Assembly: GCA_017440665.1 (NCBI GenBank)
Contig: JAFSGU010000073.1
Span: forward strand, 1 to 57,365
Length of the DNA: 57,365 nt
Source: Clostridia bacterium
Lineage (GTDB): Bacteria > Bacillota > Clostridia > Oscillospirales > CAG-272
Direction: 5' to 3'
Under the pieces are notes generated by a model. That model was not told the origin of the DNA, searched no databases, and was given only the letters and a program-made list of their open reading frames with translations. Below, in pieces: positions 13,780 to 52,226 of this stretch. Each line of letters starts with the position of its first letter. Position 1 is the first letter of the stretch. Position numbers and translations under genes: made by a program.

Positions 13780-13807
13780 AATAAAGCTCCGTTCTCTGAT
13801 GTATGAT

Positions 13808-15730: not shown

Positions 15731-15948
15731 GTTTGTGACTATGCCTTTCTTTGATTGTGACGTTTTTTCCGGGCCCTGAGGCTGAGGAAAATGCCGACCG
15801 CCTTTTGTCGGCAAGACACAACTGGGTTTGAAAAAGCTGTCATACGCTTTGTGCGCACTTTATTTTCAAACTTATTCTTTATAAATTACTGTTTTAACGG
15901 TAGTATTCCCGCCCGTACTCCATTTGGAATACGCGCGGGAAGCTATGA

Positions 15949-17046
15949 TCACTTTCTGTCACGTGACTTCATTGCCGCCTTTATGTCGGCTGTGTTTATC
16001 TGTATGGTAGCGGCTGATGACACCTGTCTGTTATCATTCCGCACGGGACGGCTGCCGCCACCGGGAACTCTGTTTATGACCTGAGTGGAGTCACCTGCGC
16101 TTCTCTGACGCTGAACGTTTTCGGGATATCTGCGGGCAGCAGAATTCATGCCGTTCTGTCCGTGGGCGGGCACAGCCCCATCTCTGCGGGGGGCCTGTCC
16201 TCTGCCCTGAGCATTGCCGCCACGTACCGGACGTCCGTCATTACCCATGGGGCGTCTGCCGTTCGGAGCAGAGCGTCTGTCGCCGGACGCTCCCGAGGGA
16301 CTTCTGTTACCGTAGGCGCCTGAGGGGCGTCTGCCGCGGGGGTCTCTGCCCATGCCGTTCATAAGCATTCTGCGGCGTGCTTCCATCTCCTCACGTCTGC
16401 GGCGCGCCTGTCTCTTCTCAAGGAAGATAAGAAGGGCGTATCCGCCTGCAACCACAACAACGATGATCGCCGCGATAACGATGAGCACGATAGCCCATAC
16501 GGGCATTCCCTTTTTAGCTTCACCGAATCCTTCGGGGAGGTTCGTTCCAAGGAAGCTTGAAACAGCGTTCACAGCCGCGGTAACTCCTCCTGAGTAATCT
16601 CTGTCCGTTATAGCGGGACCGAGAGTGGAATTGATGATCTCAGACAGCTTTTCGTTCGTCAGTATCTCGGACACAGAGTTGCTCTGTACCGCGTAAAAAT
16701 CGTCTGTCTCGACGGAAACGAGGATCAGCACTCCGTGGCCTACACGCCACTTTTCAAAGAGTACTCTTGCATAGTCTCCAATGTTTACTCCGTCGGTATT
16801 AAGCACCGTACATACCGCAATGCTTGCGTTTCTGTTTTCACGAAGCTTTGCTGACGCCGCCTTGACGCCGTTTTCGCATCCTTCGTCAAGTATTACAGCC
16901 GCGTCGCTGACAAGATCCTTATGCGAAGGATATGCCGCCATAGCCACAGTAGCAAGAAGCATCGCCGCAATAAGTGCCGTTACAAAATATTTAACTATCC
17001 ATCCGTTTTTTCTGCGTTCTGTCATTTCCCGCCTGTTCCTTTCCAT
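15949..17046 (-). CDS. TPM-domain membrane protein with Arg/Gly/Pro-rich cytoplasmic tail
   Basis: N-terminal TM, TPM-like core (IAVCTV...GDYARVLFEKWRVG...GVLILVS), a second TM, then about 150 aa of RG-rich low complexity. Start uncertain (17046 or 17025). Confidence 0.7.
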   Translation of the reverse strand: MERNRREMTERRKNGWIVKYFVTALIAAMLLATVAMAAYPSHKDLVSDAAVILDEGCENGVKAASAKLRENRNASIAVCTVLNTDGVNIGDYARVLFEKWRVGHGVLILVSVETDDFYAVQSNSVSEILTNEKLSEIINSTLGPAITDRDYSGGVTAAVNAVSSFLGTNLPEGFGEAKKGMPVWAIVLIVIAAIIVVVVAGGYALLIFLEKRQARRRREEMEARRRMLMNGMGRDPRGRRPSGAYGNRSPSGASGDRRSAPNGRRPMGNDGRPVRGGNAQGRGQAPRRDGAVPAHGQNGMNSAARRYPENVQRQRSAGDSTQVINRVPGGGSRPVRNDNRQVSSAATIQINTADIKAAMKSRDRK

Positions 17047-17050
17047 CGTT

Positions 17051-18097
17051 TCATTTAAGGTTTGCGGCCGCAACAAGCAGCTGCTTAAGCTCGGATTCGG
17101 CTACGCGAAGCTCTGCCTCTGTCCGCGCCCTCTCCTCGCCGACTTTTCCGTATCTTTCTATTACTGAACCAAGGAAGTCTATCATCTCGGTGTTGATCGT
17201 ACGTAAAAACTCTCTGTCAAATGCGTTACCCGGCATTTTCACGGCACTGCCCACCTTATCGATACCGAGAGCAGATGCGGCATGACGCTTCCATACGCTC
17301 AGCGCGTTTGCATTGATCTCGCCGATCATCTCGCGCATTGCCGCACAGTTGTTTCTTACAAGCATGATACGGGGAGCGATCTGCATCATGAGAGCACGAG
17401 TCTGCTCGATCGAGGTGATACGCTCGCCAAAGCGGCGGCACATCTCCGCAAAATCGCTTGCCGCGTCAACGTCGGACTCCTCTCCGCTGTTCTTTGCAAA
17501 TTCGCATATCTTCACAAGGGTCACGTCTCTCTCTCGAGTAAGCTTCATCTTACCCGACGCGATGTACATGGTCAGCTCCTTGATGCAGTTAAGACATGCA
17601 TCGTAAAGCTCGCTCAAAACTTTTGCATCAGTCGCTGCGACCTCTTTGTCCGCGTCAAGAGCAAGACTTACCTCATCGGCAACAGGCTCCGCCAGCTCAT
17701 ACTTTTTACTAAGCTCATCCAGCTTTCCGCTCTTAGTCTTGAATATGCCGAGGATACCCGCTTTTTCCCCTTCGGGAGACTCCATGTCTTCTATGAGTCC
17801 TGCAAGCTCCCTCATAATACCGACAGCATTACTGTCGAATCCGCCTGCGGCGCCGAGAGATGCCGCCGCGGCAATATCAGCGGCTTTTTTCTGCACAGAC
17901 AGTCCGAAGCCGGCAAGCACGCTTTCGTCGGTAACGTTTATCTTTCCGGCGTATTCTTCGATAAGCTTTATCTCCTCAGGTGTAAAAAGCTCCTCATAAG
18001 GATTTTTGTCAGCCTTTTCCGTCACTTCCGCGGTGTTGTCCGCATCTTCAAAAGCCGCAACGTTTTCCGCCTGACCTTTTTCAAAACCGTTTTCCAT
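17051..18097 (-). CDS. TelA/YaaN-like toxic anion resistance protein
   Basis: Length and helical sequence resemble the TelA family; it sits immediately upstream of the TPM gene. Confidence 0.75.
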   Translation of the reverse strand: MENGFEKGQAENVAAFEDADNTAEVTEKADKNPYEELFTPEEIKLIEEYAGKINVTDESVLAGFGLSVQKKAADIAAAASLGAAGGFDSNAVGIMRELAGLIEDMESPEGEKAGILGIFKTKSGKLDELSKKYELAEPVADEVSLALDADKEVAATDAKVLSELYDACLNCIKELTMYIASGKMKLTRERDVTLVKICEFAKNSGEESDVDAASDFAEMCRRFGERITSIEQTRALMMQIAPRIMLVRNNCAAMREMIGEINANALSVWKRHAASALGIDKVGSAVKMPGNAFDREFLRTINTEMIDFLGSVIERYGKVGEERARTEAELRVAESELKQLLVAAANLK

Positions 18098-18164
18098 AAA
18101 TATCTCCTTTCAGTTTTGGACTGTACGGGATACGGCAGAACACAGTTCCGCCTTATTATGTTGA

Positions 18165-19121
18165 TTATTCGTTTTCCTCAGTTTTTTCGTTTTCTGCTTC
18201 CTCTCCCACGTAAACGCAGGTACCGTCCTCGTCGATGTATGCGATAACGCCCTTGTCTGCGTCTTCATCCGTGTACCCGGGATCGGTTATAACGTCGCCT
18301 GCCTCATCCTCCGCAAGTCTTGACTCAAAGGAAATGAGACGGGTAAGAGCAAGTGCCGACACGGAGAAGAATATGATGTTCTCCATAAGCGAGGGAACGT
18401 TGTGATCGGCAATAATGCCGAGTACGATACGTGCCGTGGACACACCGCCTGCGATACCGAAGGCAGATACGCTTCCCAGCCAATAAACAGGTGTATTCGC
18501 AACACCCAGCGCACTTCTGCTTTCGGAAAGCATGAAGATGACTATGGCAGAAATGCAGATAGTCGTCACCGACAGCTCAGGGTCGTTAAGAGGCATTTCT
18601 TCAAGGTCAAAATAATATTTGAAAAGGAGGAACACTCCCCATATAACGGGAACGAATGACGCCGCTCCGTGAACGAAACTGCCTCTCAGCTTGTCGGACA
18701 CCGCACATACGAAGGGGACTGCCGACAGGATGGCAAGGGGGCCGATCGCCTTAGCGCTGAACGCGGCAAGGGGAGACATCCCCTCTGCTGTATACACGGG
18801 CACGTCGGGAGACGCAACGGTAAGCACTCCGTAGCAGATGAACATAAATGCACAAAGCCAGAGCACAAAGCTCTCTATCTGATTTGCGCCCTGCTCCACC
18901 ATCTTCTGACGTCTGAAGCAGAAGCAGAAGCCAACGTTCAAAAGAACGGTCAGTACAGCAAATACCACGAATGCAGTCACTACCGCAGACGCGTTGAAAT
19001 GACGGATAGAGACGTCGTAGAACGACTTATAAGACACCGCGTACAGCACGGATGCGGCAATTGCCATGATAACGGAAGCGACCGTGCCTATGCGGAACAA
19101 AAGCATGTTTTTCTCTTTCAT
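18165..19121 (-). CDS. hypothetical polytopic membrane protein with acidic C-terminal tail
   Basis: About 8 hydrophobic segments. No family recognised. Confidence 0.5.
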   Translation of the reverse strand: MKEKNMLLFRIGTVASVIMAIAASVLYAVSYKSFYDVSIRHFNASAVVTAFVVFAVLTVLLNVGFCFCFRRQKMVEQGANQIESFVLWLCAFMFICYGVLTVASPDVPVYTAEGMSPLAAFSAKAIGPLAILSAVPFVCAVSDKLRGSFVHGAASFVPVIWGVFLLFKYYFDLEEMPLNDPELSVTTICISAIVIFMLSESRSALGVANTPVYWLGSVSAFGIAGGVSTARIVLGIIADHNVPSLMENIIFFSVSALALTRLISFESRLAEDEAGDVITDPGYTDEDADKGVIAYIDEDGTCVYVGEEAENEKTEENE

Positions 19122-27977: not shown

Positions 27978-28014
27978 ATTATTATAGACTATTTTCATCA
28001 TGGAGGGCCCCAAA

Positions 28015-30030
28015 ATGCCGTTTTTACCCGTTACACCTGAGGAAGTAAGAGAGAGAGGATATCAGCAGCCCGACTTCGTTTACGTATGCGGAGATGCCTA
28101 CGTTGATCACCCCTCCTTCGGCGCGGCTATAATCACCCGTGTTCTTGAAGAAGCGGGATTTTTATGCGCCGTACTCCCCCAGCCGGACTGGAGAAACACA
28201 GATGATTTCAAGCGCTTCGGCAGACCGAGACTCGGCTTTCTCGTTTCTTCGGGCAATATTGACTCCATGGTGGCGCATTACACCGCAGCGAAGCGCAAGA
28301 GAAACGATGATTACTACTCACCCGGAGGAGTTGCAGGCAAGCGTCCCGACCGCGCGCTTATCGTATACTGCAACCGCATCCGCGAGGCTTACGGTGACGT
28401 GCCGATACTTATCGGCGGACTTGAAGCGTCCCTCAGACGCTTTGCACATTACGACTACTGGTCGGACAAGGTGAGACGAAGCATCCTGATCGACTCCCGC
28501 GCTGACATACTTATGTACGGTATGGGTGAAAATACTATCGTGCGCCTTGCAAAGCTCCTTGACCGCGGAATCCCCGTAAAAAAGCTCCGCGACGTGAGAG
28601 GCACAGCATACGTGTGCAAGACAGCGGACGGAGTGGAAACACACTTTCCCGTTGACAGAGCGACTGATGAAGATCCTGCTCCCGGTTATGATTACGACGA
28701 ACTAAAGGAAAACCGTGAAGTATACGCCGAGGCGTTCAGACGTCAGTACAGAAATAATGATGCCGTCTACGGAAAAGCTATTATCGAGTACTACGGAGAC
28801 CGCGCGGTGGTGGTAAACCCGCCTATGCCTCCCCTTGAGAGAGAGGAGCTTGACCGCGTTTACGCCCTCCCCTTCATGCGTGACTATCATCCCATGTACG
28901 AAAAGGACGGAGGAGTCCCCGCGATCCGCGAGGTGAAATTCTCCATCACTCACAACAGAGGCTGCTTCGGCGGATGTAATTTCTGTGCGCTTGCGTTCCA
29001 TCAGGGACGTGCAGTACGTTCGAGAAGCATTGAGTCCGTAGTGGCAGAAGCAGAAAAGATCGCCGCAATGCCCGACTTCAAGGGATACATCCACGATGTT
29101 GGCGGTCCCACCGCAAACTTCCGTTATCCCGCTTGCGAAAAGCAGAAGGAGCACGGCGTTTGCCCCGACAGAAAGTGTCTCGCACCAAGACCCTGTAAGA
29201 ATCTTGTAGCGGACCAAAGCGAGTACGCCGAGCTGCTCCGCAGAGTTGAAGCTGTACCCGGTGTAAAGAAGGTGTTCGTCCGTTCGGGCATCCGCTTTGA
29301 CTACATGCTTTGCGACAGAGACAACACATTCTTCCGTCAGCTCGTGTCACGCCACGTAAGCGGACAGCTTAAGGTGGCGCCCGAGCATTGCTCCGACGCG
29401 GTGCTCCGCATGATGGGCAAGCCCTCTATCGGAACCTACGACCGTTTCAGAGAAAAATTCTTCGACTATTCAGCAGACGCGGGACTTGAGCAGTACCTTG
29501 TGCCTTACCTCATGTCAAGCCATCCCGGCAGCACCATGGACGATGCCGCAGAGCTTGCGCTGTATACCAAGAAGATAGGTCTTGCCCCCGAGCAGGTACA
29601 GGACTTTTATCCCACACCCGGTACTGCCTCCACAGTCATGTTTTATACAGGTATTGACCCCTTCACGGGCCGCGAGATATACACTCCCACCGACTACAGA
29701 GAAAAGCAGCTTCAGCGCGCCCTTCTGCAGTGGAGACGGAGAGAAAACCGACCGCTCATAAAAGAAGCTGAAAAGTATTGTACCGAGCGCGGTAAAAAGA
29801 TGCTGGCAGAGCTTCTTGAAGGAGCTCCCGTACAGAACAGCGGCAGCAAGAAGTCTCATAAGTCTGCGGGAGACAAAAACAAGGCGCAGAATAAAGACAA
29901 AAAACAGACTAAAAAGACTGATACACCCGACAAGCCACGCAAGGTGCGCGCTGACGAAAAGCGCGCAAAAGGCTGGGCGGTATCAAAGAAACCGAAAAAC
30001 GGCGCCAAAAAGGGCGTCAAAAAGAAATAA
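28015..30030 (+). CDS. ygiQ: YgiQ-family radical SAM protein with Lys-rich C-terminal tail
   Basis: CFGGCNFC radical-SAM cluster motif and N-terminal PFLPVTPEE...CGDAYVDHPSFG typical of UPF0313. GGAGGG RBS. Confidence 0.85.
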   Translation: MPFLPVTPEEVRERGYQQPDFVYVCGDAYVDHPSFGAAIITRVLEEAGFLCAVLPQPDWRNTDDFKRFGRPRLGFLVSSGNIDSMVAHYTAAKRKRNDDYYSPGGVAGKRPDRALIVYCNRIREAYGDVPILIGGLEASLRRFAHYDYWSDKVRRSILIDSRADILMYGMGENTIVRLAKLLDRGIPVKKLRDVRGTAYVCKTADGVETHFPVDRATDEDPAPGYDYDELKENREVYAEAFRRQYRNNDAVYGKAIIEYYGDRAVVVNPPMPPLEREELDRVYALPFMRDYHPMYEKDGGVPAIREVKFSITHNRGCFGGCNFCALAFHQGRAVRSRSIESVVAEAEKIAAMPDFKGYIHDVGGPTANFRYPACEKQKEHGVCPDRKCLAPRPCKNLVADQSEYAELLRRVEAVPGVKKVFVRSGIRFDYMLCDRDNTFFRQLVSRHVSGQLKVAPEHCSDAVLRMMGKPSIGTYDRFREKFFDYSADAGLEQYLVPYLMSSHPGSTMDDAAELALYTKKIGLAPEQVQDFYPTPGTASTVMFYTGIDPFTGREIYTPTDYREKQLQRALLQWRRRENRPLIKEAEKYCTERGKKMLAELLEGAPVQNSGSKKSHKSAGDKNKAQNKDKKQTKKTDTPDKPRKVRADEKRAKGWAVSKKPKNGAKKGVKKK

Positions 30031-30169
30031 CAAAGTCTGAAAACCACATTGGCTGCCCCGTCTGCAACACTACCGCAGATATGGTAACAACTTTCGTAAT
30101 AACTGTAATCCTTAGAAAGACCCATCTCAAGCGCCGAAGTTTCCTCGCTTCGCTCACCTCCTTGGCTGA

Positions 30170-30204
30170 TTCTTATCTTTTTTGCTTCGCAAAAAAGATA
30201 AGAA
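30170..30204. repeat. perfect 16-bp AT-rich inverted repeat with 3-nt loop
   Basis: ttcttatcttttttgc-ttc-gcaaaaaagataagaa. Confidence 0.85.
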
Positions 30205-30374
30205 AAGAAAACCAATAATTAGCGTGCTTTTTTCACATCATATTTTTGCTTTGCTAAAATTCTACTCATAGAAAAGCCACTTAGCTTTGCCAACATCGTT
30301 GGCAGTTTATCGGTACAAAAAATTAAATCGTCTGAAAAACGAAACACATCAAACCGAAAGGTACGGTAAAGAAT

Positions 30375-31754
30375 TTGAACACAGACAGAATTCCACGCAG
30401 AGTTCTCGGAACTTTGCTTTCCTCCGTATCCGCGGGAGTAGTTCCCCGTACGGGAGGACCGTATATAGCTATCGGCAGAGTGGACGAGATCGCATCCCTT
30501 GCTGATGACCTGAACCGCGTAGCCGACGGCGAGGGAGCGACCCGCTTCATCATCGGACGTTACGGCTCGGGTAAGAGCTTTCTTATACAGCTTATGCGCG
30601 GACATGCCGCAGATCGCGGATTCGTCACAGCCGACTGTGACCTTTCCCCCGAGAGACGTCTCAGCGGTCCCGGCGGTCTTGCTACGTACCGTGAGCTTAT
30701 CAGAAACCTCTCCTGCAAATCATCTCCCGACGGAGGTGCGCTCCCCGCTATCATCGGACGATGGTACTCCGGAGTTGCCGAGCGTGTTACCGCGTCGGGC
30801 ATCCCCCACACCTCCCCCGAGTTCTCCGCACGTGTCACATCGGAAATAATCGCAGACGCCCGCTCCCTTGAAGCAGGCGTGGGCGGATTCGACTTTGCAC
30901 TTGTGGTAAGCGAATACTGCAAGGCCTACGGCGAGGGGGATGACGCTAAGATGTCCGCGTGTCTGCGCTGGCTGAGAGGCGAGTACGGTACGAAGACCGA
31001 GGCAAGGGCTGCCATCGGCATCCGATCCCTCTCCGTTATAAACGACGTGAACTGGTACGACCACATGAAGCTCATCTGCGCTCTCGTGCGTAAGGTTGGC
31101 TACAAGGGCCTTTGTATATTCATCGACGAGGGAGTAAATCTTTACAAGATATCCAACCGCATTTCCCGCGAGGCGAATTACGAAAAGATACTCTCCATGT
31201 ACAACGATACCATGCAGGGTAAGGCTGAGGGACTTATGCTCATCTTCGGCGGAACACCCCAGTTTTTGGAGGACACCCGACGCGGACTTTTCAGTTACGA
31301 GGCACTACGCAGCCGTCTTTGCGACAGCAGATTTGTTTCGGGCGAAAACGGCGCTCCCCTTAAGAGCATGATGGGTCCCGTTATAAGACTGAAAAGGCTG
31401 TCCGACTCGGAGCTTTTGGCGCTTATGATGCGTCTCACCGCACTTCACTCCAAGTATCACGGAGTTGAAGCCCGAATCACCGACGACGAGATGGCGGAGT
31501 TTTTGAAGAATTCACTCTCCCGTGCAGGGGCTGAGGAAATGATCACTCCCCGTGAGATAATCAGAGATTACGTGTCTCTGCTGGATCTGCTGCTGCAGAA
31601 TCCCGACAAGTCCTATCGTGACATCGTAGGCAAAAAAACAGAGGTACCCGTTCAAGCTTCCACCGCGTCCGCAAGCTCACAAAACGATGAAACGCCACCT
31701 GCAAACGGCGGATATACACCGAGAAAAGTCACCATCGACGATATCGTATTTTGA
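30375..31754 (+). CDS. P-loop ATPase, BrxD/DUF2791-like
   Basis: Walker A GRYGSGKSF and Walker B-like LCIFIDEG. The N-terminal region before the P-loop resembles BrxC/BrxD-type ATPases. The only available start is TTG with a weak RBS. Confidence 0.6.
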   Translation: MNTDRIPRRVLGTLLSSVSAGVVPRTGGPYIAIGRVDEIASLADDLNRVADGEGATRFIIGRYGSGKSFLIQLMRGHAADRGFVTADCDLSPERRLSGPGGLATYRELIRNLSCKSSPDGGALPAIIGRWYSGVAERVTASGIPHTSPEFSARVTSEIIADARSLEAGVGGFDFALVVSEYCKAYGEGDDAKMSACLRWLRGEYGTKTEARAAIGIRSLSVINDVNWYDHMKLICALVRKVGYKGLCIFIDEGVNLYKISNRISREANYEKILSMYNDTMQGKAEGLMLIFGGTPQFLEDTRRGLFSYEALRSRLCDSRFVSGENGAPLKSMMGPVIRLKRLSDSELLALMMRLTALHSKYHGVEARITDDEMAEFLKNSLSRAGAEEMITPREIIRDYVSLLDLLLQNPDKSYRDIVGKKTEVPVQASTASASSQNDETPPANGGYTPRKVTIDDIVF

Positions 31755-31785
31755 TAAATATTAAATGATCAGAAAGGAGCGCGCC

Positions 31786-34053
31786 ATGACAGCCGAGCAG
31801 ATATTTTATTCCTACTCCCCATTTATCCGTGAGTTTATCTATTCCCGCGGATGGGAAACTCTTCATGAAATGCAGCTTGAAGCGGCGCGGGTTATCTTCA
31901 ACTCGGAAGATAATCTTCTCCTGTCCTCGTCAACCGCATCGGGAAAGACGGAAGCCGCTCTTTTCCCCATACTGTCACAGTTTCACGAGGATCCCCCCGC
32001 AACCTTCGGAGCTTTGTATATAGCTCCTCTTAAATCCCTTATTAACGACCAGTTTATGAGAATAACCGAGCTTTGCGACGGCGCTCATATTCCCGTATAT
32101 CATTGGCACGGTGACGTGGCGGCGTCTCACAAGAACCGTGCTCTCGACCGTCCTGCGGGACTTTTACAGATAACCCCCGAGTCTCTTGAAGCTATGCTCA
32201 TCCGCCGTCACAACGACCTGCCGCGGCTTTTCGGAGACCTCAGGTACGTGATAATCGATGAGATACACACCCTCACGGGCACCGACCGCGGAAATCAGAT
32301 AATATGCCAGCTTTCCCGTCTGTGCGAAGCCGCAGGTATAAACCCGAGACGCATCGGTCTTTCCGCTACTATCGGAGATCTTAGCATCGCGGCAGACTGG
32401 TTGTCGGCAGGTACGGGCAGAGACTCTGCCGTTCCGACGGCAACAAACAAAAGCATACGCATGCGTCTCGGAATGGAGCATTTCTTCATTAACAACGCTC
32501 CCGTATCCACCGAAGCCACGGACAACGTACGTCTTACCGTGGAAGGCACGGACGTCATTCCCGAGGAAGTATCCGAAGTCAAAACGGACAGCAAAGAGAC
32601 CTTCCACATTGACGACGGCTTTGAGTACGTATACGATTGCGTACGGGACAAAAAATCCCTTGTTTTCTCCAATTCACGAGAGGAAACGGAATACGTTACC
32701 GCTACTCTCCGTCAGATAGCGGACTACAGAGGTGAGGACGATATCTTCCTCATCCACCACGGAAACCTTTCCGCCGCCCTGAGAGAGGATGCGGAAATGA
32801 AAATGAAAGCAGAGGACGTTCACGCCGTCACCTGTGCCACCGTGACCCTTGAGCTTGGTGTTGACATCGGCAAGCTGGAGCGAGTGGTACAGATGGGTGC
32901 GCCCACAACGGTGTCCTCCTTCCTGCAAAGACTCGGACGCTCGGGCAGACGAGGTGACGTTTCGGAGATGATGATGGTCTTCCGCGAGGAAGAACCCCTT
33001 CCAAACGCACCTTTGCCCGCACTTATCCCATGGGAGCTTCTCCGCGCCATCGCGGTAGTACAGCTTTACATTGAAGAAAGGTTTATCGAGCCTCCTCGCA
33101 GAGTGAGATGTCCCTACAGCCTTCTTTTCCAGCAGACTCTTTCCACCCTTGCGGGAAGCGGAGCCATGACTCCCGCCCGACTTGCGTCAAAGATATTCGC
33201 CATGCCCCCCTTTGAATTTGTGGAAAAGGAAGACTATAAAACTCTGCTTTACCACATGATAGAAAACGACTACCTTGAAATGACCGACGAGGGCGAGCTC
33301 ATCGTAGGTCTCAAGGGAGAAAAGCTGACCTCATCATTCAAGTTTTTCGCGGTGTTCAAGGACAGCGAGGATTTCACGGTAAGATGTGAGTCCGAGGAAA
33401 TAGGCACCATCACCACCGCTCCCCCTGCAGGAGACCGTTTTGCTCTTGCGGGAAGAGTTTGGGAGGTGGAAGAATGTGACGTTGCCCGCCGTCTCGTATA
33501 CGTTCATCCCGTAAAGGGTAAAATGGAGGTGTCATGGCCGGGCGACTTCGGCGAGATACACACCCGTATACTTGAAAGAATGCGTCAGGTGCTGACGGAG
33601 GACGTGGAATACCCATACCTCAAACCCGACGCTTTGAAGAGACTTCGCACAGCCCGTGCCGTCGCCCGTAACACGGGAATGACCGCCCGTGACATGATAT
33701 GCATCGGCGGCTCCACCTGGGTATATTTCCCATGGCTCGGCACAAGAAGTTTTCGCACAATGCGCCGCTTCGTAGCAAAGAACGGTGCCGCCTTCGGACT
33801 TCACGATATGGAATTTGAAGGATGCTGCTACATGACTTTCAAGCTTGAACGCGGAGGCGGCGAGGCTTTACTAAAACATCTTGCAAAAATATCCCGTGAG
33901 GGAATTGATCCCGAGGATATCGTCGCTGTGAGCGAAGCCCCCGCCTTTAATAAATATGACCCATACCTGCCCCGTGAGCTGCTAAGACAGGCGTACATCC
34001 GCGACCGCCTCAGATGTGACGAGGTGGAAGCAAGACTGGCAAGGTATAGGTGA
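31786..34053 (+). CDS. Lhr-like SF2 (DEAD/DEAH-box) helicase
   Basis: Motif I STASGKTEA, II IIDEIH, III LSATIGD, VI QRLGRSGRRG, plus an extension of about 330 aa C-terminal to the helicase core. AAAGGAG RBS before ATG 31786. Confidence 0.8.
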   Translation: MTAEQIFYSYSPFIREFIYSRGWETLHEMQLEAARVIFNSEDNLLLSSSTASGKTEAALFPILSQFHEDPPATFGALYIAPLKSLINDQFMRITELCDGAHIPVYHWHGDVAASHKNRALDRPAGLLQITPESLEAMLIRRHNDLPRLFGDLRYVIIDEIHTLTGTDRGNQIICQLSRLCEAAGINPRRIGLSATIGDLSIAADWLSAGTGRDSAVPTATNKSIRMRLGMEHFFINNAPVSTEATDNVRLTVEGTDVIPEEVSEVKTDSKETFHIDDGFEYVYDCVRDKKSLVFSNSREETEYVTATLRQIADYRGEDDIFLIHHGNLSAALREDAEMKMKAEDVHAVTCATVTLELGVDIGKLERVVQMGAPTTVSSFLQRLGRSGRRGDVSEMMMVFREEEPLPNAPLPALIPWELLRAIAVVQLYIEERFIEPPRRVRCPYSLLFQQTLSTLAGSGAMTPARLASKIFAMPPFEFVEKEDYKTLLYHMIENDYLEMTDEGELIVGLKGEKLTSSFKFFAVFKDSEDFTVRCESEEIGTITTAPPAGDRFALAGRVWEVEECDVARRLVYVHPVKGKMEVSWPGDFGEIHTRILERMRQVLTEDVEYPYLKPDALKRLRTARAVARNTGMTARDMICIGGSTWVYFPWLGTRSFRTMRRFVAKNGAAFGLHDMEFEGCCYMTFKLERGGGEALLKHLAKISREGIDPEDIVAVSEAPAFNKYDPYLPRELLRQAYIRDRLRCDEVEARLARYR

Positions 34054-34205: not shown

Positions 34206-34748
34206 ATGGGTAACGATAGTAACTTTCCAATAAGAAAAAATACCCGTCTCAAAAATTTTGATTACAGCAAGCCAGGTGCATACTTTTTGACAATATGTAC
34301 CAAGAATCGGCAGAATTATTTTTGGAACTGCGAAATTAATCCGCAAGAAATAACATGGATATCTGTAGGGACGAACTGTGTTCGTCCGCATGGTTTACCC
34401 TTATCCAAAATAGGCCAGCTTGTATTTGAGGAACTTGATGCTTGGCATACCATATATGAACCCGTTTCAATCCGCTCATTTGTTATAATGCCCGATCATA
34501 TTCACTTGATCGTTGCGATCTTGCCGAAAGATTCCGGACAACCACAGGTCGCTCCTACGGTTGAACGGATGGTTAAACAGTTCAAGGGTATGGTAACAAA
34601 ACGTGTTGGTTTTCCCATTTGGCAAAACTCTTTCTATGACCACATCATCAGAAACCCTGACGACTACCACGAATGTACCCAATATATCATTAACAATCCA
34701 CTGCGTTATTATTACCGGAAGCTTAGTTCACTCGAGGAAAACAAATGA
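34206..34748 (+). CDS. REP-associated tyrosine transposase (RAYT)/IS200-like Y1 transposase family protein
   Basis: HUH motif in VIMPDHIHLIV. C-terminal SFYDHIIRNPDDY...YIINNPLRYY carries the catalytic-Tyr region typical of COG1943-type proteins. Confidence 0.75.
   Translation: MGNDSNFPIRKNTRLKNFDYSKPGAYFLTICTKNRQNYFWNCEINPQEITWISVGTNCVRPHGLPLSKIGQLVFEELDAWHTIYEPVSIRSFVIMPDHIHLIVAILPKDSGQPQVAPTVERMVKQFKGMVTKRVGFPIWQNSFYDHIIRNPDDYHECTQYIINNPLRYYYRKLSSLEENK
34365..34387 (+). repeat. REP-like hairpin inside the RAYT coding sequence: GTAG + 8-bp stem + TGT loop
   Basis: gtag-ggacgaac-tgt-gttcgtcc encodes VGTNCVRP (codons 54-61). Inverted relative to 34160-34182. Confidence 0.65.
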
Positions 34749-35449
34749 AAATTCATTGTATTTGGGAACACAACGGGAACGATACCCTGCTTTATTCCAG
34801 GGATTATATCGGCGCGTTTACACGCGGCAGTTCCTTGGAAGAAGCACTTTCGAAAATGCCACAAGAGATACTCGCATACTCGCGCTGGATCGGTCAAAGC
34901 ATAACTGAGGATATCATTCCCATCGTTGCAGAAGAACACATATCTTCGCTTGATATTTGTGATGCTGATTCTGATGTGATTTTCGATTCAGAAAAACAAT
35001 CTTTAACGATGGAAGAATATCTGCATCTAAAGACTATAACTTTAAAATCCGCAGAAGATTTTTTGAAAATGCATGATTCCATATCAGACAAGCACTCAAG
35101 CTCGTTAAAACCTAAAAATACTTTTATCGGTCCGAGACCCAGAACAGCACACGAAATGTATGAGCATACAAAATGCGTAAACAGTTATTATTTCGGAGAA
35201 ATCGGCGTCTCTGTATCTAATGATGGTTCCATACTTCAGTGTAGAAAAAACGGTTTTGAACTTCTGGAAAAACAAACAGGGTTCTTGTCAAATACTGTTT
35301 TGACAGGCAGCTATGACGAAAAATGGTCGCTTAGAAAGGTCTTGCGTCGTTTCATTTGGCACGACAGAATACACGGAAAAGCTATGTATAGAATGGCAAC
35401 TCTCACATTCGGTAAAAATTCCGTGGATAATACGTTCGGTTTTAACTGA
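34745..35449 (+). CDS. hypothetical protein: HicB-like N-terminal fold fused to a DinB-like helical domain (tentative)
   Basis: ATGA overlap with the RAYT stop. N-terminus [33 protein letters not shown] resembles UPF0150/HicB. C-terminus [16 protein letters not shown] resembles DinB-type His motifs. Confidence 0.45.
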
Positions 35450-35480
35450 TAAATCCCCCCATAACAAATCGGAGTTAAAA

Positions 35481-38309
35481 ATGCAGAAAAATATTGTCAT
35501 CCGCGGTGCGCGGGTAAATAATCTTAAAAATATAGACGCTACCATCCCCCGTGATAAGCTTGTCATATTGACCGGTCTGTCGGGATGCGGAAAATCCTCC
35601 CTTGCCTTTGACACTCTCTACGCAGAGGGTCACAGACGGTTCGTGGAAAGCCTTTCCTCATACGCCCGTATGTTCCTCGGTCAGCTTGACAAGCCCGACG
35701 TGGATTCCATTGAAGGGCTCTCCCCCGCTATATCCATCGACCAGAAGACCACTTCAAAAAATCCCCGTTCCACGGTGGGAACGGTTACCGAAATATACGA
35801 CTACCTCCGTCTCCTATACGCAAGACTTGGCGTGCCTCACTGCCCCGTCTGCGGCAAGGAGATAAGACAGATCTCCCCCGATCAGATAATCGACAAGATC
35901 ATGGCTATGCCCGAGGGCACACGCTTTATGATTCTTGCCCCCGTTGTAAGAGGCAAAAAGGGACGCCATGAAAAGGTAATAAATGACGCCCGTAAAAACG
36001 GATACGTCCGTCTCCGCGTTGACGGTGTCATATACGGCGACGGAGAAGAGATCGAGCTTGATAAAAATCTCAAGCATACCGTGGAGATCGTGGTGGACCG
36101 TCTCGTAATGAAGGACGGTATCCGCGGAAGAGTTACCGATTCCGTGGAATGTGCTCTCCGCGAGGCTGAGGGGTACGTGCTGTGTGAGACCGCTCCCCGC
36201 GAGGGAGAGGCGGAAAAGATGAATTTTTCCACCAACTACGCATGCGACGAGCACGGTATCAGCTTCGGTGAGCTTGAACCCCGCATGTTCTCCTTCAACA
36301 ATCCCTTCGGAGCCTGCCCCAAATGCTCGGGTCTCGGCTCTCAGAGAAGCATTTCACCCGACAAGATCATCCCCGACAAGTCCCTCTCCCTATCCGAGGG
36401 AGGTATCGCCGTAAACGGATTCAAGTCCCTGACTGAGGACTCCTGGAACGGTCCTCTTGTAAAAGCTGTGATCGAATCCTACGGTGCCGATCTCAACACC
36501 CCCATTGAAAACTTCTCCAAAGAAGCACTTGACGCGCTTCTTTACGGTACCGACAAAAAGTTTGACGTTGTCCGCTTTTTCGGCGGAGAATCCACAAGGC
36601 AGACTACCGCCAAGTTCGACGGTCTTATCAAAATAATCGAAGAGAGAGCGAGCTGGGGCGGAGATTCCTCTGACTACTACGACCAGTTCTTCCTTGACGT
36701 GGAATGTCCCGAATGTCACGGAATGAGACTTAACCGCGAGGTGCTTTCGGTCACCGTTGGCGGCAAAAACATTTCCGAATACTGTAACATGTCCGTCACC
36801 GATGCGCTTGACTTTACCGAAAGTCTCGCTTTCGAGGGCGGAGAAGCGGTGATCGCCCATGAGATCGTGAAAGAGATAAAGAGCCGTCTTGGCTTCTTAC
36901 GCTCGGTTGGCCTTGAATATCTTACTCTTTCGAGAAAATCAGGCTCTCTGTCAGGCGGTGAGGCACAGCGTATCCGTCTTGCGACCCAGATAGGCTCGTC
37001 CCTCACGGGAGTTTTGTACATCCTTGACGAGCCCTCTATAGGTCTTCATCAGAGAGATAACTCAAAGCTCATTGCCACGCTGAAAAAGCTCCGCGACCTT
37101 GGAAACAGTGTTATAGTTGTAGAGCACGACGAGGAAACCATGCGCGAATCCGACTATATCATCGATATAGGCCCCGGCGCGGGTATACATGGTGGAGAGA
37201 TCGTTGCCGCCGGCACACCTGCTGAGGTTGCCGCAAATGAAAATTCCGTCACGGGAGATTTTCTGTCGGGCAGACGCAAAATTGCCGTACCCGAAACGAG
37301 ACGCTCCGGAAACGGCAAATTCCTCAAAATAGTGGGTGCGGCTGAAAACAACCTCAAAAACGTAAACGTGAAGATTCCCCTCGGTTGCTTCGTATGCGTA
37401 ACGGGCGTTTCCGGTTCGGGAAAGTCCTCACTTATAAATTCAATTCTGCTCAAAAGTCTGTCTGCCACCCTTAATAAAGCAGTAACCAACCCGGGACGGC
37501 ATAAAAAGATCGAGGGAGTAGAGCATCTCGACAAGGTGATCGCCATCGACCAGAGCCCCATCGGACGCACGCCACGTTCAAATCCCGCCACCTACACGGG
37601 TCTTTTCACCGACATACGCGACCTGTTTGCTAAGACGCCCGGCGCGAAGCTACGCGGCTATAAATCGGGACGCTTCAGCTTTAACGTGCGCGGCGGAAGA
37701 TGCGAGGCATGTGAGGGTGACGGCGTAAAGAAGATAGAAATGCACTTTTTGCCCGACGTATACGTCACATGTGACGTATGCCACGGCAAGAGATACAACC
37801 GCGAGACCCTTGACGTTAAGTTCAAGGGTAAGAGCATCGCTGACGTGCTTGAAATGACCTGCGAGGAGGGTGCTGAGTTCTTCTCCGATATTCCCCGTAT
37901 CGCAAACCGTCTTCGTATGCTTTGCGACGTAGGACTTGGGTACATCAAGATAGGACAGTCATCCACCACTCTTTCGGGAGGTGAGGCTCAGAGAGTTAAG
38001 CTTGCGACCGAGCTTTCCAAGCGTCCCACGGGAAGGACAGTCTACATCCTTGACGAGCCTACCACGGGTCTGCACACTGCCGACGTTGAAAGACTTATCA
38101 CCGTGCTCAACCGTCTTATCGAAAGCGGAAATTCCGTTATTGTCATCGAGCACAATCTTGACATGATAAAGACCGCCGATCATATTATAGACCTTGGTCC
38201 CGAGGGAGGCGACGGCGGAGGAACACTTGTTGCTCAGGGTACACCGGAAGAGGTCGCAAAGGTAGAAAAGTCGTACACGGGCAAATACCTCAAAGAATTG
38301 CTTGGGTAA
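35481..38309 (+). CDS. uvrA: excinuclease ABC subunit A
   Basis: Two ABC modules ([18 protein letters not shown]), zinc-finger Cys clusters, LSGGEAQR signatures twice. GGAG RBS. Confidence 0.95.
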
Positions 38310-41450: not shown

Positions 41451-41606
41451 ATCACTGTGTTTCGCATATTTTTCCGGTTCAAGAATAATTATTGCATGTA
41501 TATGATCGGCATTATTACATAGCGGTCAATGATTACGCCGGATATGTTCTCACTTGATAATAAATATTTCTCAATAAATTCACCGCACGAAGACAACCTT
41601 ACTTGC

Positions 41607-41632
41607 GGGGCGTCGAGGGCGCCGCCCCCTAC
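41607..41632 (-). repeat. REP-like hairpin inside the RAYT pseudogene, inverted copy
   Basis: Plus strand ggggcgtcg-aggg-cgccgcccc-ctac encodes VGGGALDAP (codons 47-55 of the pseudogene). Confidence 0.6.
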
Positions 41633-41828
41633 GGGATAAATTATTCTCGAAAGAATCTGTTTCCTGTCCTTAATACATATAGTAACAAAGTATGCCCCGC
41701 CTCTACTATAATTGTATTCTTTTACCCGCAGTTCTTTTCTTCTTGACCTTTTATTTTCTTCATTCATCACAGTTCTCTTATATACGTTTCACCCCCGATC
41801 TGTAACAGACCGAGGGTGAAAATAATAT

Positions 41829-47507: not shown

Positions 47508-48106
47508 TTATCTGATATCTGAACACACTTGTCTGCTGTGTTTGTATCCGTCTCATATTTCTCCTTATACCTGACTCCGACATATGTGTCAAAGAGCACC
47601 TTATCGTCCGCCGTGTCTATTTTTCCGTCGATCTCATAGGGAGTATCGGCATAGGTAAAGTCGCTTCCCTTTTCGGCAGAGCGCAGAAGATATTTTACAT
47701 ACGCAAGACGAACTTTTTCTCCGTTATCACCCGCATCCGAAAAGCTTATCCTTTTCAGCTTGCGCTTTTTCTTTTTGCCCCGCCTGAAGCTGTGTCCTAC
47801 GTACTCAAAACGGTCTGTGCCGACCACATAACTACTGTTTTTCAGCATACGGCGGGACATCCTGCCGGCAATCGGCGCAAAAAAACGCATTATAAATCTG
47901 CCAAGTGTGCCCATCACCTTGTCTTCCACACGTCTGTAACGTTCCATTATCATGGAGTACACGGTGTATAAAAGCAGTATTGCGCAGATTCCTTGAAAGA
48001 AAACTATTATGAAGCTAGCGGGTCCGCCGTTATTGAAAAGATCGGCAACAACTATAAGTACTATGTATATTACCGCACGTACTTTTTTATCCGATAGGTA
48101 TTTCAC
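47504..48106 (-). CDS. membrane protein, DUF4129-like C-terminal region (tentative)
   Basis: Two N-terminal TM helices. C-terminal FTYADTPYEI resembles the DUF4129 signature. 4-nt overlap with the DUF58 gene. Confidence 0.45.
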   Translation of the reverse strand: MKYLSDKKVRAVIYIVLIVVADLFNNGGPASFIIVFFQGICAILLLYTVYSMIMERYRRVEDKVMGTLGRFIMRFFAPIAGRMSRRMLKNSSYVVGTDRFEYVGHSFRRGKKKKRKLKRISFSDAGDNGEKVRLAYVKYLLRSAEKGSDFTYADTPYEIDGKIDTADDKVLFDTYVGVRYKEKYETDTNTADKCVQISDK

Positions 48107-49191
48107 AGCTCCACCACCTTTACAGTGTTGTATCTCTTAAGCTTACCAATAGCCTCGTCGGTGTTTTCATCCATACAGGTAGTCAGTATATATATTTCCG
48201 CCTCTTTAAGGTTTGCTTCCGCGCCGTTGTCAAGCAGTGCCGGAAACGAGCATCCAGGAAGAAGCCACACCTTGGACATTTCCATAAGTAACTCGCTCAC
48301 GTGCTGTTTTCCGCTCATGATCGGCATGGACAGGCTTTGCCGTCCGTCGAGCATCCTGCAGTTTGCGGCATACCCAACCTTATACCCGTTTTCCAAAGCC
48401 ATCTGAACAGCTGAAGCGGTAAGAGAAAGGGCACTTTCCATGCTGTTTTCGTATTCCGCACCGGTTGTCTTTTCCGAGTCGTGGGTAAAATCAAGGTAAA
48501 ACATAATTATTCTGTCCGAACAGTTATCATATTTGTTCACCTTAATATTCACGTTACCGCCTACAGAGCTTCTTGCGGTTGCTTTAAAATTGACGGAGTT
48601 AAACGGGTCGCCGTGCATATAGTCCCGCACTCCTGCCACGGAAAACGGGTCGCTTACAACGGGTCGCCGTGTAAAGCTTTCGCCGAATACGGTATTCACT
48701 GGGGACAGGTAACCTATCCTGTCAAGAAGCTTGGGATAAACAAACAGCTCCGCAGAAAACTGAAAGCTTTTGACACTTTCCGCGAATATACTTTTTGTCA
48801 GCACCGTTGCAGTGGTCATGATATAATACCCGCGGTGAGCGCATTTCACCTTGTAGGTTCGGGTAAGCTTGGTAAACGGCGGCAGTTGAAATCGGCTTAT
48901 AACGAGCTGCATACCCTCTGAAGTGTCACGACCCTCAATCCTCAGATTTGAGTGGATATAGGTTTCCACGTCCACGTTAAAAAGCGGAACGGGGAGTGGA
49001 TTTGTTAGGGTCTCGATTATCTCAACAGTATCTTCCTCGAAAACTCCCAAAGAAGAAAACTCCCTGCTGTACAAAAGCTTGTTAACAAGACGAATTTTAA
49101 TAAGACAGTATATTTCCCGCACCGTCAAAAACAGCAATATAAAAGGAAGCAAATAAAGAAACAGCTTTAACAGAATTATAAGAATTCTCAT
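48103..49191 (-). CDS. DUF58 domain protein
   Basis: VRDYMHGDPFNSVNFKATARS matches the DUF58 R-x-Y-x-x-G-D...W-K-A-T-A-R signature. Directly downstream of MoxR. Confidence 0.75.
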   Translation of the reverse strand: MRILIILLKLFLYLLPFILLFLTVREIYCLIKIRLVNKLLYSREFSSLGVFEEDTVEIIETLTNPLPVPLFNVDVETYIHSNLRIEGRDTSEGMQLVISRFQLPPFTKLTRTYKVKCAHRGYYIMTTATVLTKSIFAESVKSFQFSAELFVYPKLLDRIGYLSPVNTVFGESFTRRPVVSDPFSVAGVRDYMHGDPFNSVNFKATARSSVGGNVNIKVNKYDNCSDRIIMFYLDFTHDSEKTTGAEYENSMESALSLTASAVQMALENGYKVGYAANCRMLDGRQSLSMPIMSGKQHVSELLMEMSKVWLLPGCSFPALLDNGAEANLKEAEIYILTTCMDENTDEAIGKLKRYNTVKVVEL

Positions 49192-49228
49192 GCGATGTCT
49201 CCGGTATAATTTTTAGATTGTTGTTTTG

Positions 49229-50185
49229 TCACAGCTTATACTTGTCAAGGTCTTCCGTGGGAACGTTTACGAATGTGAGAATTTCTCTGACTGCATCCTC
49301 AGCCGCGTCTTTAACGGTGCTGAGAGAGGTCTTCAAGACCAATCGGTGAGCGATGACGGGAACTGCCACCTTCTTTACGTCATCGGGAATAACGTAATCT
49401 CTTCCGCTTATAAGTGCCATCGCCTTTGACGCTTTCAAAAGTGCGATACAGCTTCTTGTACTGGCGCCCATTACAACACCCTGCTTATATCTTGTGAATT
49501 CCACGATCTCCGATATGTAAGAAAGCAGGTCGGGGTGTACGTAAACACCCTTTACTTCTTCCCTTGCCTTCAATATGGAGGCGGCATCCGCCACGGGAAC
49601 AAGTTCTGCCAACGGGTCATCCTTTTCGAAGCGGGACAAAATACGGATATTTTCGTCTCTCGTGGGATAACCCATTTTCAGTTTAAGAAGGAAACGGTCA
49701 AGCTGAGCCTCGGGCAGAGGGAAAACGCCCATACTCTCGATGGGATTCTGAGTAGCAATTACCATAAAAGGAGACGGAAGCTCAAACGTCTCACCGTCAA
49801 CGGTTACGGTATGCTCTTCCATACATTCGAGAAGACCCGACTGTGTTTTGGGAGTACCGCGGTTGATCTCGTCCGCTAAGATTACGTTTGCGAATACGGG
49901 ACCGGGTATGAATTCAAACTCGGAACTTTTCATATTGTAGTATTTAACACCCGTAATATCCGCAGGTAGTAGGTCGGGCGTAAACTGAACGCGTTTAAAA
50001 GAAACTCCGAGAGAAGCCGCAAATGACTTTGCGAGCACGGTCTTGCCCGAACCCGGCACGTCCTCTATGAGAATATGACCGTCGGACAAAAGTCCGACCA
50101 TCAGAAGCTCTATCACGTCTTCTTTCCCGACTATAACGCGGCAAATATTTTCTTTAATTTTTGATATCAGTTCATGTGCTGACAT
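49229..50185 (-). CDS. MoxR-family AAA+ ATPase
   Basis: DVPGSGKT Walker A and ILADEINRGTPKTQSGLLECMEE. Start at MSAHELISKIKENI. Confidence 0.9.
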   Translation of the reverse strand: MSAHELISKIKENICRVIVGKEDVIELLMVGLLSDGHILIEDVPGSGKTVLAKSFAASLGVSFKRVQFTPDLLPADITGVKYYNMKSSEFEFIPGPVFANVILADEINRGTPKTQSGLLECMEEHTVTVDGETFELPSPFMVIATQNPIESMGVFPLPEAQLDRFLLKLKMGYPTRDENIRILSRFEKDDPLAELVPVADAASILKAREEVKGVYVHPDLLSYISEIVEFTRYKQGVVMGASTRSCIALLKASKAMALISGRDYVIPDDVKKVAVPVIAHRLVLKTSLSTVKDAAEDAVREILTFVNVPTEDLDKYKL

Positions 50186-50806: not shown

Positions 50807-51050
50807 CTTTGAAACCTGTCTGCATATTCAAGTAAAATCGACTTAAATCGTTCCTCTCCGCCAATACTTTTTTACTTGCTGACATTATATCTTCCACAAC
50901 GTCGTCGCACAGTAATACAGCACATCTGCCTTTATGCTCATATTTTAACACATTAAGCAATGCCGTTTTTCCCGAGCACGTGTCGCCCTCAAGCACATAT
51001 AAGTTGCTTTTACCGCTGATTATTTTTTTATAAGCTTCGTAAAGCTTCAT
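50415..51050 (-). CDS. chimeric ORF: P-loop (DnaA/Hda-like?) N-terminal fragment fused to one DUF11 repeat domain
   Basis: The first about 82 aa (LEGDTCSGKTALL...) have no counterpart in 54007-54855. The last about 129 aa (from Val83 VNIFDSATVTAS...) match the C-terminus of that protein; I count 5 aa changes over the final 121 aligned residues. Confidence 0.55.
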   Translation of the reverse strand: MKLYEAYKKIISGKSNLYVLEGDTCSGKTALLNVLKYEHKGRCAVLLCDDVVEDIMSASKKVLAERNDLSRFYLNMQTGFKAVNIFDSATVTASLSPELSIIKSVSPTTVVENGTVTYTFVLRNSGNTEAGADDNVSLTDTFDPILSDISVTYNGTILAEGVNYTYDEATGVFATIPGQITIPAATFTQDPVSGIWTVTPGESVLTVTGTI

Positions 51051-52221: not shown

Positions 52222-52226
52222 CATAC

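Follow-up and report, generated by a model that had tools for sequence, protein, structure and literature searches.

A Shango ATPase-helicase gene pair in a Clostridia bacterium whose sngA partner probably lies some 33 kb upstream

Do an ATPase gene and a helicase gene that sit side by side among housekeeping genes form a defense system of their own, or do they belong to a larger one? The question is raised by a 57,365-nucleotide stretch of DNA from a Clostridia bacterium (contig JAFSGU010000073.1; here, the window), in which an earlier note, made from the sequence alone, had described such a pair as an orphan, self-contained two-gene system. Both open reading frames (ORFs) were confirmed as intact and located on the forward strand where the note had placed them. 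The first (30375 to 31754) starts with TTG and encodes a P-loop ATPase of 459 amino acids (aa), a length identical in close homologues; the product of the TTG start is the same protein in public gene calls. After a spacer of 31 nt, which the note had given as about 30 nt, the second (31786 to 34053) encodes a superfamily 2 (SF2) helicase of 755 aa. Its ATG at 31786, with AAAGGAG 7 nt upstream, is a likelier start than the in-frame ATG at 31765. All motifs quoted previously were present in the translations, namely, GRYGSGKSF (Walker A, GRYGSGKS) and CIFIDEG (Walker B) in the ATPase and GKT (within SGKT), DEIH, SAT, and QRLGRSGRRG in the helicase, which carries a C-terminal extension of ∼350 aa. 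The pair indeed lies between ygiQ (28000 to 30030, forward strand; Radical_SAM_N and DUF3362 by precomputed Pfam annotation of identical or near-identical genes) and uvrA (35481 to 38309, forward strand; true start at ∼35481; an identical gene on another contig, L092, has UvrA domains).

Shango consists of a TerB-like protein, an ATPase, and a DEAD/DEAH helicase and is phage protective, protection having been described only for proteobacterial systems, in Pseudomonas aeruginosa and Escherichia coli (10.1101/2022.11.11.516204; 10.1101/2022.05.11.491447). Judged by profile comparison, the pair is sngB and sngC of Shango and not a part of BREX, since both proteins gave full-length top matches to the PADLOC Shango models, each with a score two to three times that of its BREX counterpart. 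SngB scored 512.7 bits (2.2e-154) with the SngB model, with residues 1 to 427 aligning to profile positions 1 to 419 of 439, and 160.7 bits with the BrxD model, which places it with the Shango ATPases. SngC scored 801.8 bits (1.9e-241) with the SngC model, with residues 5 to 747 aligning to positions 4 to 713 of 720, and 411.8 bits with the BrxHI model, which places it with the Shango helicases. The assignment of the ATPase to the DUF2791/BrxD type was borne out by Pfam PF10923 (BrxC_BrxD, DUF2791), which matched SngB at 3.8e-142. With the NCBIfam BREX_BrxD equivalog (NF033438), however, SngB reached only 162.4 bits versus a cutoff of 350 and so falls outside BrxD. Of the two kinships that the note had suggested, the one to Shango thus holds and the one to BREX does not, its relation to the pair being family-level similarity only. 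In agreement with the note, no BREX component was found among the 30 window ORFs scanned with PADLOC, and no ORF resembled PglX, PglZ, or PglW. As no listed ORF exceeds 998 aa (ORFs of at least 80 aa in the region from 24 to 42 kb and the window-wide gene list), none is of PglX or BrxC size. A literature search on the combination of DUF2791, TerB, and Lhr found nothing relevant.

The helicase also proved to be of the Lhr type, as proposed. Pfam detected DEAD and Helicase_C domains in SngC, together with a weak, subthreshold Lhr winged-helix match (WH_Lhr) after the RecA domains, and the closest solved structures, by sequence as well as by predicted fold, were MrfA/YprA (6znp) and Lhr (5v9x). 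SngC has been grouped with BrxHI, DruE, and DpdJ (PMC12278908). Unlike the repair helicases Lhr and MrfA, it lacks a DUF1998 Zn finger and a ligase or MrfB partner, being paired with SngB instead; structural alignments to them reached only ∼18 to 19% identity, and its equivalog scores lay far below the cutoffs (TIGR04121, ligase-associated DEXH, 222 versus 850 bits; PRK13767, 172 versus 849; PRK09751, 90 versus 1496). The two structure models were mediocre (pLDDT of 71 and 69). Since the RecA2 domain of SngC was poorly predicted and TM-scores were low, its model confirms the Lhr/MrfA kinship only, and no nuclease-like domain could be assigned in its confident C-terminal part. A fold search with the SngB model yielded no significant PDB match (best, RdrA, E = 0.014; further matches, Orc1/Cdc6 and BrxC, E = 0.16 to 0.7), and the model adds little beyond an AAA+/STAND-like P-loop.

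The third Shango gene, sngA, is absent from the window, where the note had likewise seen no TerB gene: tblastn with 72 SngA proteins returned noise (best E = 0.011), an SngA HMM found no match in any of the six frames, and no sngA remnant was detected in the 344-nt spacer between ygiQ and sngB. The reason is probably that the window stops at an assembly break before reaching sngA. Metagenome contig L089 matches window positions 5 to 3775 (∼3.8 kb) at 99.84% identity and encodes the exact PepF protein of the window; it runs beyond the left end of the window and carries there a gene for a 164-aa protein, a gene for a 778-aa glycosyltransferase (GT778), and sngA. This sngA (L089 positions 6731 to 8422, reverse strand; about −4646 to −2955, forward strand, in window coordinates) adjoins the glycosyltransferase gene with a gap of 35 nt and encodes an intact SngA of 563 aa with TerB_N and TerB_C domains (PADLOC SngA, 2.4e-45). 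Its position, ∼3 kb past the left end of the window and, in the same orientation as sngB, ∼33 kb upstream of it, is read from the contig of a near-identical strain and from co-occurrence in one sample, rather than from the window's own molecule; in that sample (ERZ28019142), a second contig encodes the exact SngB of the window beside SngC. The window begins with a palindromic hairpin (1 to 26), its first ∼26 nt being the reverse complement relative to L089, and we read this inversion as a fold-back artifact of the contig end. Near this hairpin, the similarity of two further contigs to the window also breaks off, at position 87 for L090 and at position 105 for L091. With an intact SngA probably just outside, the idea of a self-contained two-gene system finds no support; the "minimal" system would be an effect of where the contig happens to end.

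Close relatives were found in at least 566 matching stretches of GTDB species-representative genomes. In 76 of the 79 informative loci from related GTDB species, sngA lies immediately upstream of sngB. These upstream neighbors are SngA by PADLOC and TerB_N/TerB_C proteins by Pfam, and in the case checked (L082), sngA and sngB overlap by 4 nt. The slot that sngA holds in most relatives is filled here by the housekeeping gene ygiQ, and the ygiQ-sngB junction is common to the window, L001, L084, and L085. In L085, the order is SngA-GT-MazE-PsiU-NaPi-YgiQ-SngB-o155-SngC, with sngA and sngB 8 kb apart; going by gene order, this locus is an intermediate state of the sngA-sngB separation. SngA-GT778 pairs without an adjoining SngB were seen in L086 to L088, and, in all, five lineages retain SngA and GT778 as neighbors. 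In ten other species, sngAB occurs without sngC within 10 kb, and about 15% of related species have sngC more than 10 kb from sngAB.

We consider it probable that sngB and sngC are the part of a Shango system whose sngA was split off by a chromosomal rearrangement and now lies ∼33 kb upstream. The ancestral layout, retained in most related gut Clostridia, would have been sngA-sngB-sngC. The arrival between sngA and sngB of a housekeeping block ending in ygiQ, which puts them 8 kb apart in L085 and ∼33 kb apart in the window's lineage, would then have left sngBC with an upstream region of its own and sngA followed by the glycosyltransferase gene. On this reading, what we describe is a known system in an unusual, scattered layout and no new two-gene system. 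As in known Shango systems (for instance, PA14_RS11735-RS11745 of P. aeruginosa and the E. coli system described by Millman et al. 2022), full-length profile matches are obtained for SngB and SngC, SngA of this lineage has TerB_N and TerB_C domains and matches the SngA profile, and the ancestral order was A-B-C on one strand. Unlike in those systems, the genes are dispersed here, the locus sits among housekeeping genes rather than in a defense hotspot or island, and the system, whose role in defense is putative, has apparently been inherited vertically across many gut Clostridia.

Purifying selection acts on each of the three genes. The dN/dS ratio was 0.055 to 0.11 for SngB and 0.05 for SngC (dS, 0.4 to 2) and 0.09 to 0.18 for SngA within the split clade, compared with 0.04 to 0.10 for controls, and SngA was intact in every split lineage examined. 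There was also no acceleration of SngA relative to SngB after the split: at SngB identities of 0.83 to 0.84, SngA identity was 0.50 to 0.61 in unsplit species pairs and 0.54 in the split pair. As all three genes are intact and constrained, conservation suggests that the three proteins most likely still act together in trans. Selection persisting after separation would provide natural-experiment evidence for joint action of the Shango components in trans and for a need for SngA. In such a system, SngC, as an Lhr/MrfA-like SF2 helicase and, by analogy, a 3'-5' translocase, might engage phage DNA or replication intermediates, with SngB, a BrxC/BrxD-type P-loop ATPase, serving as its nucleotide-dependent switch or loader and SngA as a sensor or scaffold, possibly close to the membrane. 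A nuclease domain was found in neither SngB nor SngC; interference would thus not involve direct cleavage, and phage replication would instead be displaced or blocked, or host nucleases would be recruited.

The locus itself is not an island, although the note had seen typical island context there. The GC content of the pair equals that of its flanks, its neighbors are housekeeping genes, window ORFs beyond the 30 scanned with PADLOC are annotated as housekeeping by Pfam, and no mobile or defense genes were seen beside the pair in the PADLOC scan of window ORFs. Synteny with uvrA was found by tblastn in L001, L005 to L011, L013, L016 to L018, L020, and L021, an adjacency confined to one subclade and explained by shared descent, and pairwise SngB and UvrA identities correlate (r = 0.95; 12 genomes), which indicates vertical inheritance. 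A conserved locus without island association is, moreover, what the note itself had named as speaking against its proposal. Elsewhere in the window, PADLOC matches to an ABC-F protein (mad3) and a MoxR ATPase (IetA) were generic and represent no defense system, and a 227-aa ORF (PDC-S10, 2.3e-9) was rejected as a defense gene, the match being generic or weak. Such a housekeeping setting, combined with vertical inheritance in a clostridial clade, is atypical of defense systems.

Could SngB and SngC nevertheless work as an autonomous module, alone or with a host factor, while SngA has been repurposed, for example, in the envelope together with the glycosyltransferase? Its tight linkage to the glycosyltransferase gene could point to a changed role, the adjacency having been retained across the five lineages; there is also no physical, and almost certainly no transcriptional, coupling of sngA to sngBC in either the window's lineage or L085, and the ten species with sngAB but no nearby sngC show that the cluster tolerates separation. 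We still think this quite unlikely, given that SngA is intact and constrained in the split lineages and has kept the same divergence relative to SngB as in unsplit species, which would be unexpected had its partner changed or been lost; the glycosyltransferase adjacency simply marks the rearrangement breakpoint. Decay of a Shango operon that has lost sngA, with pseudogenization under way, would fit the absence of sngA from the 57-kb window but is very improbable, as both ORFs are full length compared with the profiles, dN/dS is 0.05 to 0.11 at dS of 0.4 to 2, and the arrangement persists across lineages down to 78% SngB identity (L001, L085, and the window). That the pair is a detached BrxD-BrxHI accessory pair of type 2 BREX (Pgl) can be practically dismissed. 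Type 2 BREX likewise has an adjacent PF10923 P-loop ATPase and Lhr-like SF2 helicase, and the BrxD and BrxHI models do match significantly, but they are outscored by the Sng models, and in relatives a TerB-type gene, with no Pgl genes, adjoins the pair.

Another reading takes the trio as a vertically inherited chromosomal module for DNA maintenance, a repair or replication helper for which the proximity of uvrA is functional. Its wide occurrence in species-representative genomes, the SngB-UvrA correlation, the lack of mobile or defense genes next to the locus, and flanks that are often DNA related (uvrA, nrdD, nrdR, a DinG-like helicase, and FtsK) agree with this idea, as does the fact that the nearest solved helicases are repair enzymes. 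It is, however, unlikely in view of the full-length matches to defense-derived SngA, SngB, and SngC models and the repair-helicase equivalog scores far below their cutoffs; uvrA is adjacent in one subclade only, and correlated divergence of linked genes is expected at any long-resident locus. We entertain, though only tentatively, that across a large gut clostridial clade (Oscillospiraceae-like metagenome-assembled genomes) the trio is an ancient, vertically inherited, scatter-tolerant fixture and no mobile immune cassette. This would imply either a "domesticated," always-on immunity acting in trans or an endogenous DNA maintenance role of the TerB-ATPase-helicase machinery; defense systems do not usually sit in a vertically inherited, housekeeping-gene setting shared by hundreds of gut species.

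The separation of sngA favored here also bears on detection. The Shango rule of PADLOC and DefenseFinder calls for three genes colocalized as one cluster, which is not the case with sngA ∼33 kb from sngB. Detectors based on colocalization should therefore miss Shango in the window's lineage and in the related species with a distant sngC (about 15%), and for this reason Shango in gut Clostridia may be undercounted in defense censuses.

Two smaller features flank the pair. Between sngC and uvrA lies a two-ORF cassette (34206 to 35449, forward strand; 180 and 234 aa), which is context and no part of Shango. Its lower GC content, pointed out in the note, was confirmed (0.42 to 0.45 over 34 to 36 kb), while its designation as a RAYT cassette hangs on a single subthreshold Pfam match of the 180-aa, weakly IS200/Y1-transposase-like ORF (Y1_Tnp, E = 6.5e-4; 20.3 bits versus a cutoff of 23). 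The 234-aa ORF belongs to no Pfam family, and neither ORF had a PADLOC match; a homologue of the 234-aa ORF (70% identity) lies downstream of sngC in L085 too. Between ygiQ and sngB, an insertion of ∼290 nt (30036 to 30340) has direct repeats of 11 nt, GTCTGAAAA(C)C, on either side and had no Rfam match and no second copy within the window. It carries a 35-nt inverted repeat (30170 to 30204) and a promoter-like site (30232 to 30260, forward strand; TTCACA, 17 nt, TAAAAT, with an extended −10 TG) ∼115 nt ahead of the sngB TTG, whose 10 of 12 consensus matches in a consensus scan are a pattern match only, the region containing 10 such sites in total versus 6.7 expected. In an alignment with the 90%-identical relative L084, the insertion is absent, and ygiQ and sngB are separated there by 46 nt.

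Both open reading frames described in the earlier note were recovered, and every motif quoted for them was found in the translations. The first (30375-31754, +) encodes a 459-residue ATPase from a TTG start, and the second (31786-34053, +), 31 nt 3' of it, encodes a 755-residue helicase whose ATG is preceded by AAAGGAG. In Pfam and PADLOC profile searches, which that note had proposed, the ATPase fell within PF10923 (BrxC_BrxD; 3.8e-142), and both proteins scored best on models of Shango, an anti-phage system described as a TerB-like protein, an ATPase, and a DEAD/DEAH helicase that together give modest to good phage protection (10.1101/2022.11.11.516204, 10.1101/2022.05.11.491447). The part played by TerB domains in defense was still called unclear in a 2025 preprint. 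The SngB model matched the ATPase over its full length (2.2e-154, 512.7 bits, versus 160.7 bits for BrxD), and the SngC model matched the helicase at 1.9e-241 (801.8 bits, versus 411.8 bits for BrxHI). Since the Sng models thus outscored BrxD and BrxHI, and since the NCBIfam BrxD equivalog reached 162 bits against a cutoff of 350, we rejected a BREX accessory pair and assigned the two genes as sngB and sngC of Shango. The helicase carries Pfam DEAD and Helicase_C domains with a subthreshold WH_Lhr match, and the NCBIfam equivalogs for Lhr and repair helicases all scored far under their cutoffs on it.

Scanning of GTDB species genomes yielded at least 566 stretches with close SngB relatives, nearly all from uncultured gut Clostridia, Eubacteriales, or Oscillospiraceae MAGs, and 80 loci were fetched. 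A gene of 530 to 720 codons lies directly 5' of sngB on the same strand in 76 of 79 informative loci; its products match PADLOC SngA (1e-46 to 5e-26) and contain TerB_N, with TerB_C as well in three of the four tested. Adjoining sngA was missing only from the window, from L001 (its 78% relative), and from the unrelated loci L055 and L070. The helicase gene lies within 10 kb of sngB in 57 of 68 informative loci; among the other 11, sngA abuts sngB in 10, and L070 has neither partner. Metabolic genes (for a CBM9 protein, an APH-type kinase, a polysaccharide deacetylase, or EutH) stand between Shango genes in about a dozen loci. In one subclade (L047, L058, L067, L071, and L073; ∼10000-15300 of 21-kb loci), a short ORF on the opposite strand, bacA, and ftsK come after sngA-sngB, and sngC lies nowhere within 10 kb; here the cluster has been split independently, between sngB and sngC.

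The statement in the earlier note that the window holds no TerB-domain gene was upheld, as tblastn with 72 SngA proteins returned only noise and an SngA HMM found no match in any of the six frames. In L085, a relative with 83% identical SngB, the order is SngA, a GT4/pyruvyl-transferase gene, a MazE-like gene, pseudouridine synthase, an Na/Pi transporter, YgiQ, SngB, a 155-aa ORF, and SngC; sngA is here 8 kb upstream of sngB, an intermediate state between adjoining and far-separated genes. The closest homologues of this SngA, on L086 to L088, are each followed by the same 778-aa glycosyltransferase (GT778) and not by sngB. Because L087 aligned to window positions 138-4308 at 82% DNA identity, we suspected sngA just beyond the left end of the window. 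Using the product of the pepF gene (134-1912, −) as a query for matching contigs, we found L089, a metagenome contig of 19.8 kb. It shares 99.84% identity with window positions 5-3775 and runs past this end. In window orientation it encodes SngA (563 aa; PADLOC SngA 2.4e-45; TerB_N and TerB_C), GT778, and a 164-aa protein before the window starts, which would put the sngA stop codon ∼2.95 kb left of position 1, with sngA in the same orientation as sngB and ∼33 kb ahead of it. Sample ERZ28019142, the source of L089, also contains a contig (L093) with the exact SngB of the window beside SngC, and in sample ERZ28653886, too, L090 and L094 occur together.

Over its first ∼26 nt (1-26) the window shows a palindromic hairpin (GGGACGACGTCCTCGGCGTCCC) in reverse-complement orientation relative to L089, which we read as a fold-back artifact at the contig end. 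The window matches contigs L090 and L091 no farther than positions 87 and 105, near this hairpin, which suggests a reason for the absence of sngA from the window. The orphan minimal system proposed earlier is probably an edge effect of assembly, and the locus belongs to the known Shango family, its three genes most likely being dispersed. Throughout the split clade (L089:4359-8422; also L085 to L088), sngA lies ∼35 to 60 nt ahead of the 778-aa GT4 plus polysaccharide-pyruvyl-transferase fusion gene.

Nor did the locus prove to be in the typical island context that had been described for it. The GC content of sngBC (0.51 to 0.535) does not differ from that of the chromosome on either side, and a lower value (0.42 to 0.45) is confined to the small cassette that separates sngC from uvrA (34 to 36 kb). 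The neighbors are transketolase, CNNM, HAD hydrolase, flavin reductase, epimerase, and ygiQ genes on one side and, on the other, a weak IS200-like ORF, an ORF of no known family, uvrA, a ZIP transporter gene, and pheST. Synteny of sngBC with uvrA is kept in 15 species. Pairwise identities of SngB and UvrA correlate at r = 0.95 (12 genomes), as expected if the two had long been inherited together vertically. Other subclades, too, have housekeeping genes as flanks (nrdD, nrdR, a DinG-like helicase, aminoacyl-tRNA synthetase, and aspartate aminotransferase genes, ftsK). Lack of island association is something that the earlier note had itself named as speaking against its proposal. The low-GC cassette (34206-35449) comprises a 180-aa ORF with a subthreshold IS200/Y1 transposase match, to which a 93-aa fragment at 41489-41770 (−) is related, and a 234-aa ORF without family, a homologue of which also lies 3' of sngC in L085. 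The longest uvrA ORF (35313-38309) aligns with homologues only from 35481 (MQKNIVIRG...), and its first 56 codons, which would overlap the 234-aa ORF, are probably not translated.

The ygiQ-sngB gap measures 46 to 49 nt in L085 and in L084, a relative with 90% DNA identity, and 344 nt in the window because of a ∼290-nt insertion (30036-30340) absent from L084. Direct repeats of 11 nt, GTCTGAAAA(C)C, flank this insertion (30036-30046 and 30330-30340). Within it lie an inverted repeat of 35 nt (30170-30204) and, by pattern match, a promoter-like TTCACA-17-TAAAAT with an extended −10 (30232-30260); the insertion had no Rfam match and no second copy in the window. It resembles a small mobile element of the non-autonomous kind and, judging from the pattern, may supply sngBC with a promoter of their own.

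By the Nei-Gojobori method, dN/dS for SngB was 0.055 between the window and L084 (dS 0.40) and up to 0.11 in more distant pairs. SngC gave 0.05 in all pairs, the controls YgiQ, PepF, and GT778 gave 0.04 to 0.10, and SngA gave 0.09 to 0.18 in split-clade pairs with unsaturated dS. SngA always evolved faster than SngB: in species with adjoining genes, SngA identity was 0.50 to 0.61 at SngB identities of 0.83 to 0.84. The value for the split pair, the window lineage versus L085 (0.54), falls inside this range, so selection on SngA shows no hint of having been relaxed or redirected since the genes came apart. Taken most simply, these comparisons would mean that the three proteins still function together and that co-transcription is dispensable; tolerance of separated genes is supported by the other lineages with distant sngC, inserted metabolic genes, or the bacA-ftsK arrangement. 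The dispersed layout is mildly new and should escape detectors that need co-localization. Also mildly new are the natural-experiment evidence that unlinked sngA stays constrained and the housekeeping-embedded, apparently vertically inherited Shango of many gut Clostridia, features that make an endogenous DNA-maintenance role conceivable, if improbable.

The SF2 motor of SngC is intact, and among solved structures MrfA/YprA and Lhr lie closest to it (phmmer, 1.9e-27 and 5.3e-22; Foldseek, 2e-18 and 3.8e-21). In SngB, the Walker A and B motifs are canonical and the fold is of the BrxC/BrxD family; structure-database searches found no solved close relative of it. Pfam, with Foldseek for SngC, detected no nuclease domain in either protein. 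The AF2 models are moderate (pLDDT, 71 and 69), and nothing finer was drawn from them. SngC could act as a DNA translocase, with 3'-5' polarity assumed by analogy to Lhr, SngB as an ATP-dependent switch or loader, and SngA as a sensor or scaffold; interference might then rest on the blocking or remodeling of intermediates in phage replication, or on recruited nucleases.

Elsewhere in the window, a cluster at 15949-19121 (−), 12 kb from sngB, carries a TelA (toxic anion resistance) gene, a TPM-domain gene, and an unannotated 318-aa ORF; it is related to Ter stress and contains no TerB gene. PADLOC gave no convincing match for 20 further ORFs, a 227-aa ORF matching candidate PDC-S10 weakly (2.3e-9). 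A low-GC cluster (48103-53459) encodes a MoxR-type AAA_3 ATPase, a DUF58 protein, and a transglutaminase-like protein; the weak IetA match of the ATPase (9e-6) looks like generic ATPase similarity, and it was rejected as defense on this ground, as was the mad3 match (2e-56) of a double-ABC ATPase of ABC-F type (13808-15814, −). With its ordinary Pfam architecture of two ABC_tran domains and ABC_tran_Xtn, the latter is probably a housekeeping ABC-F factor.
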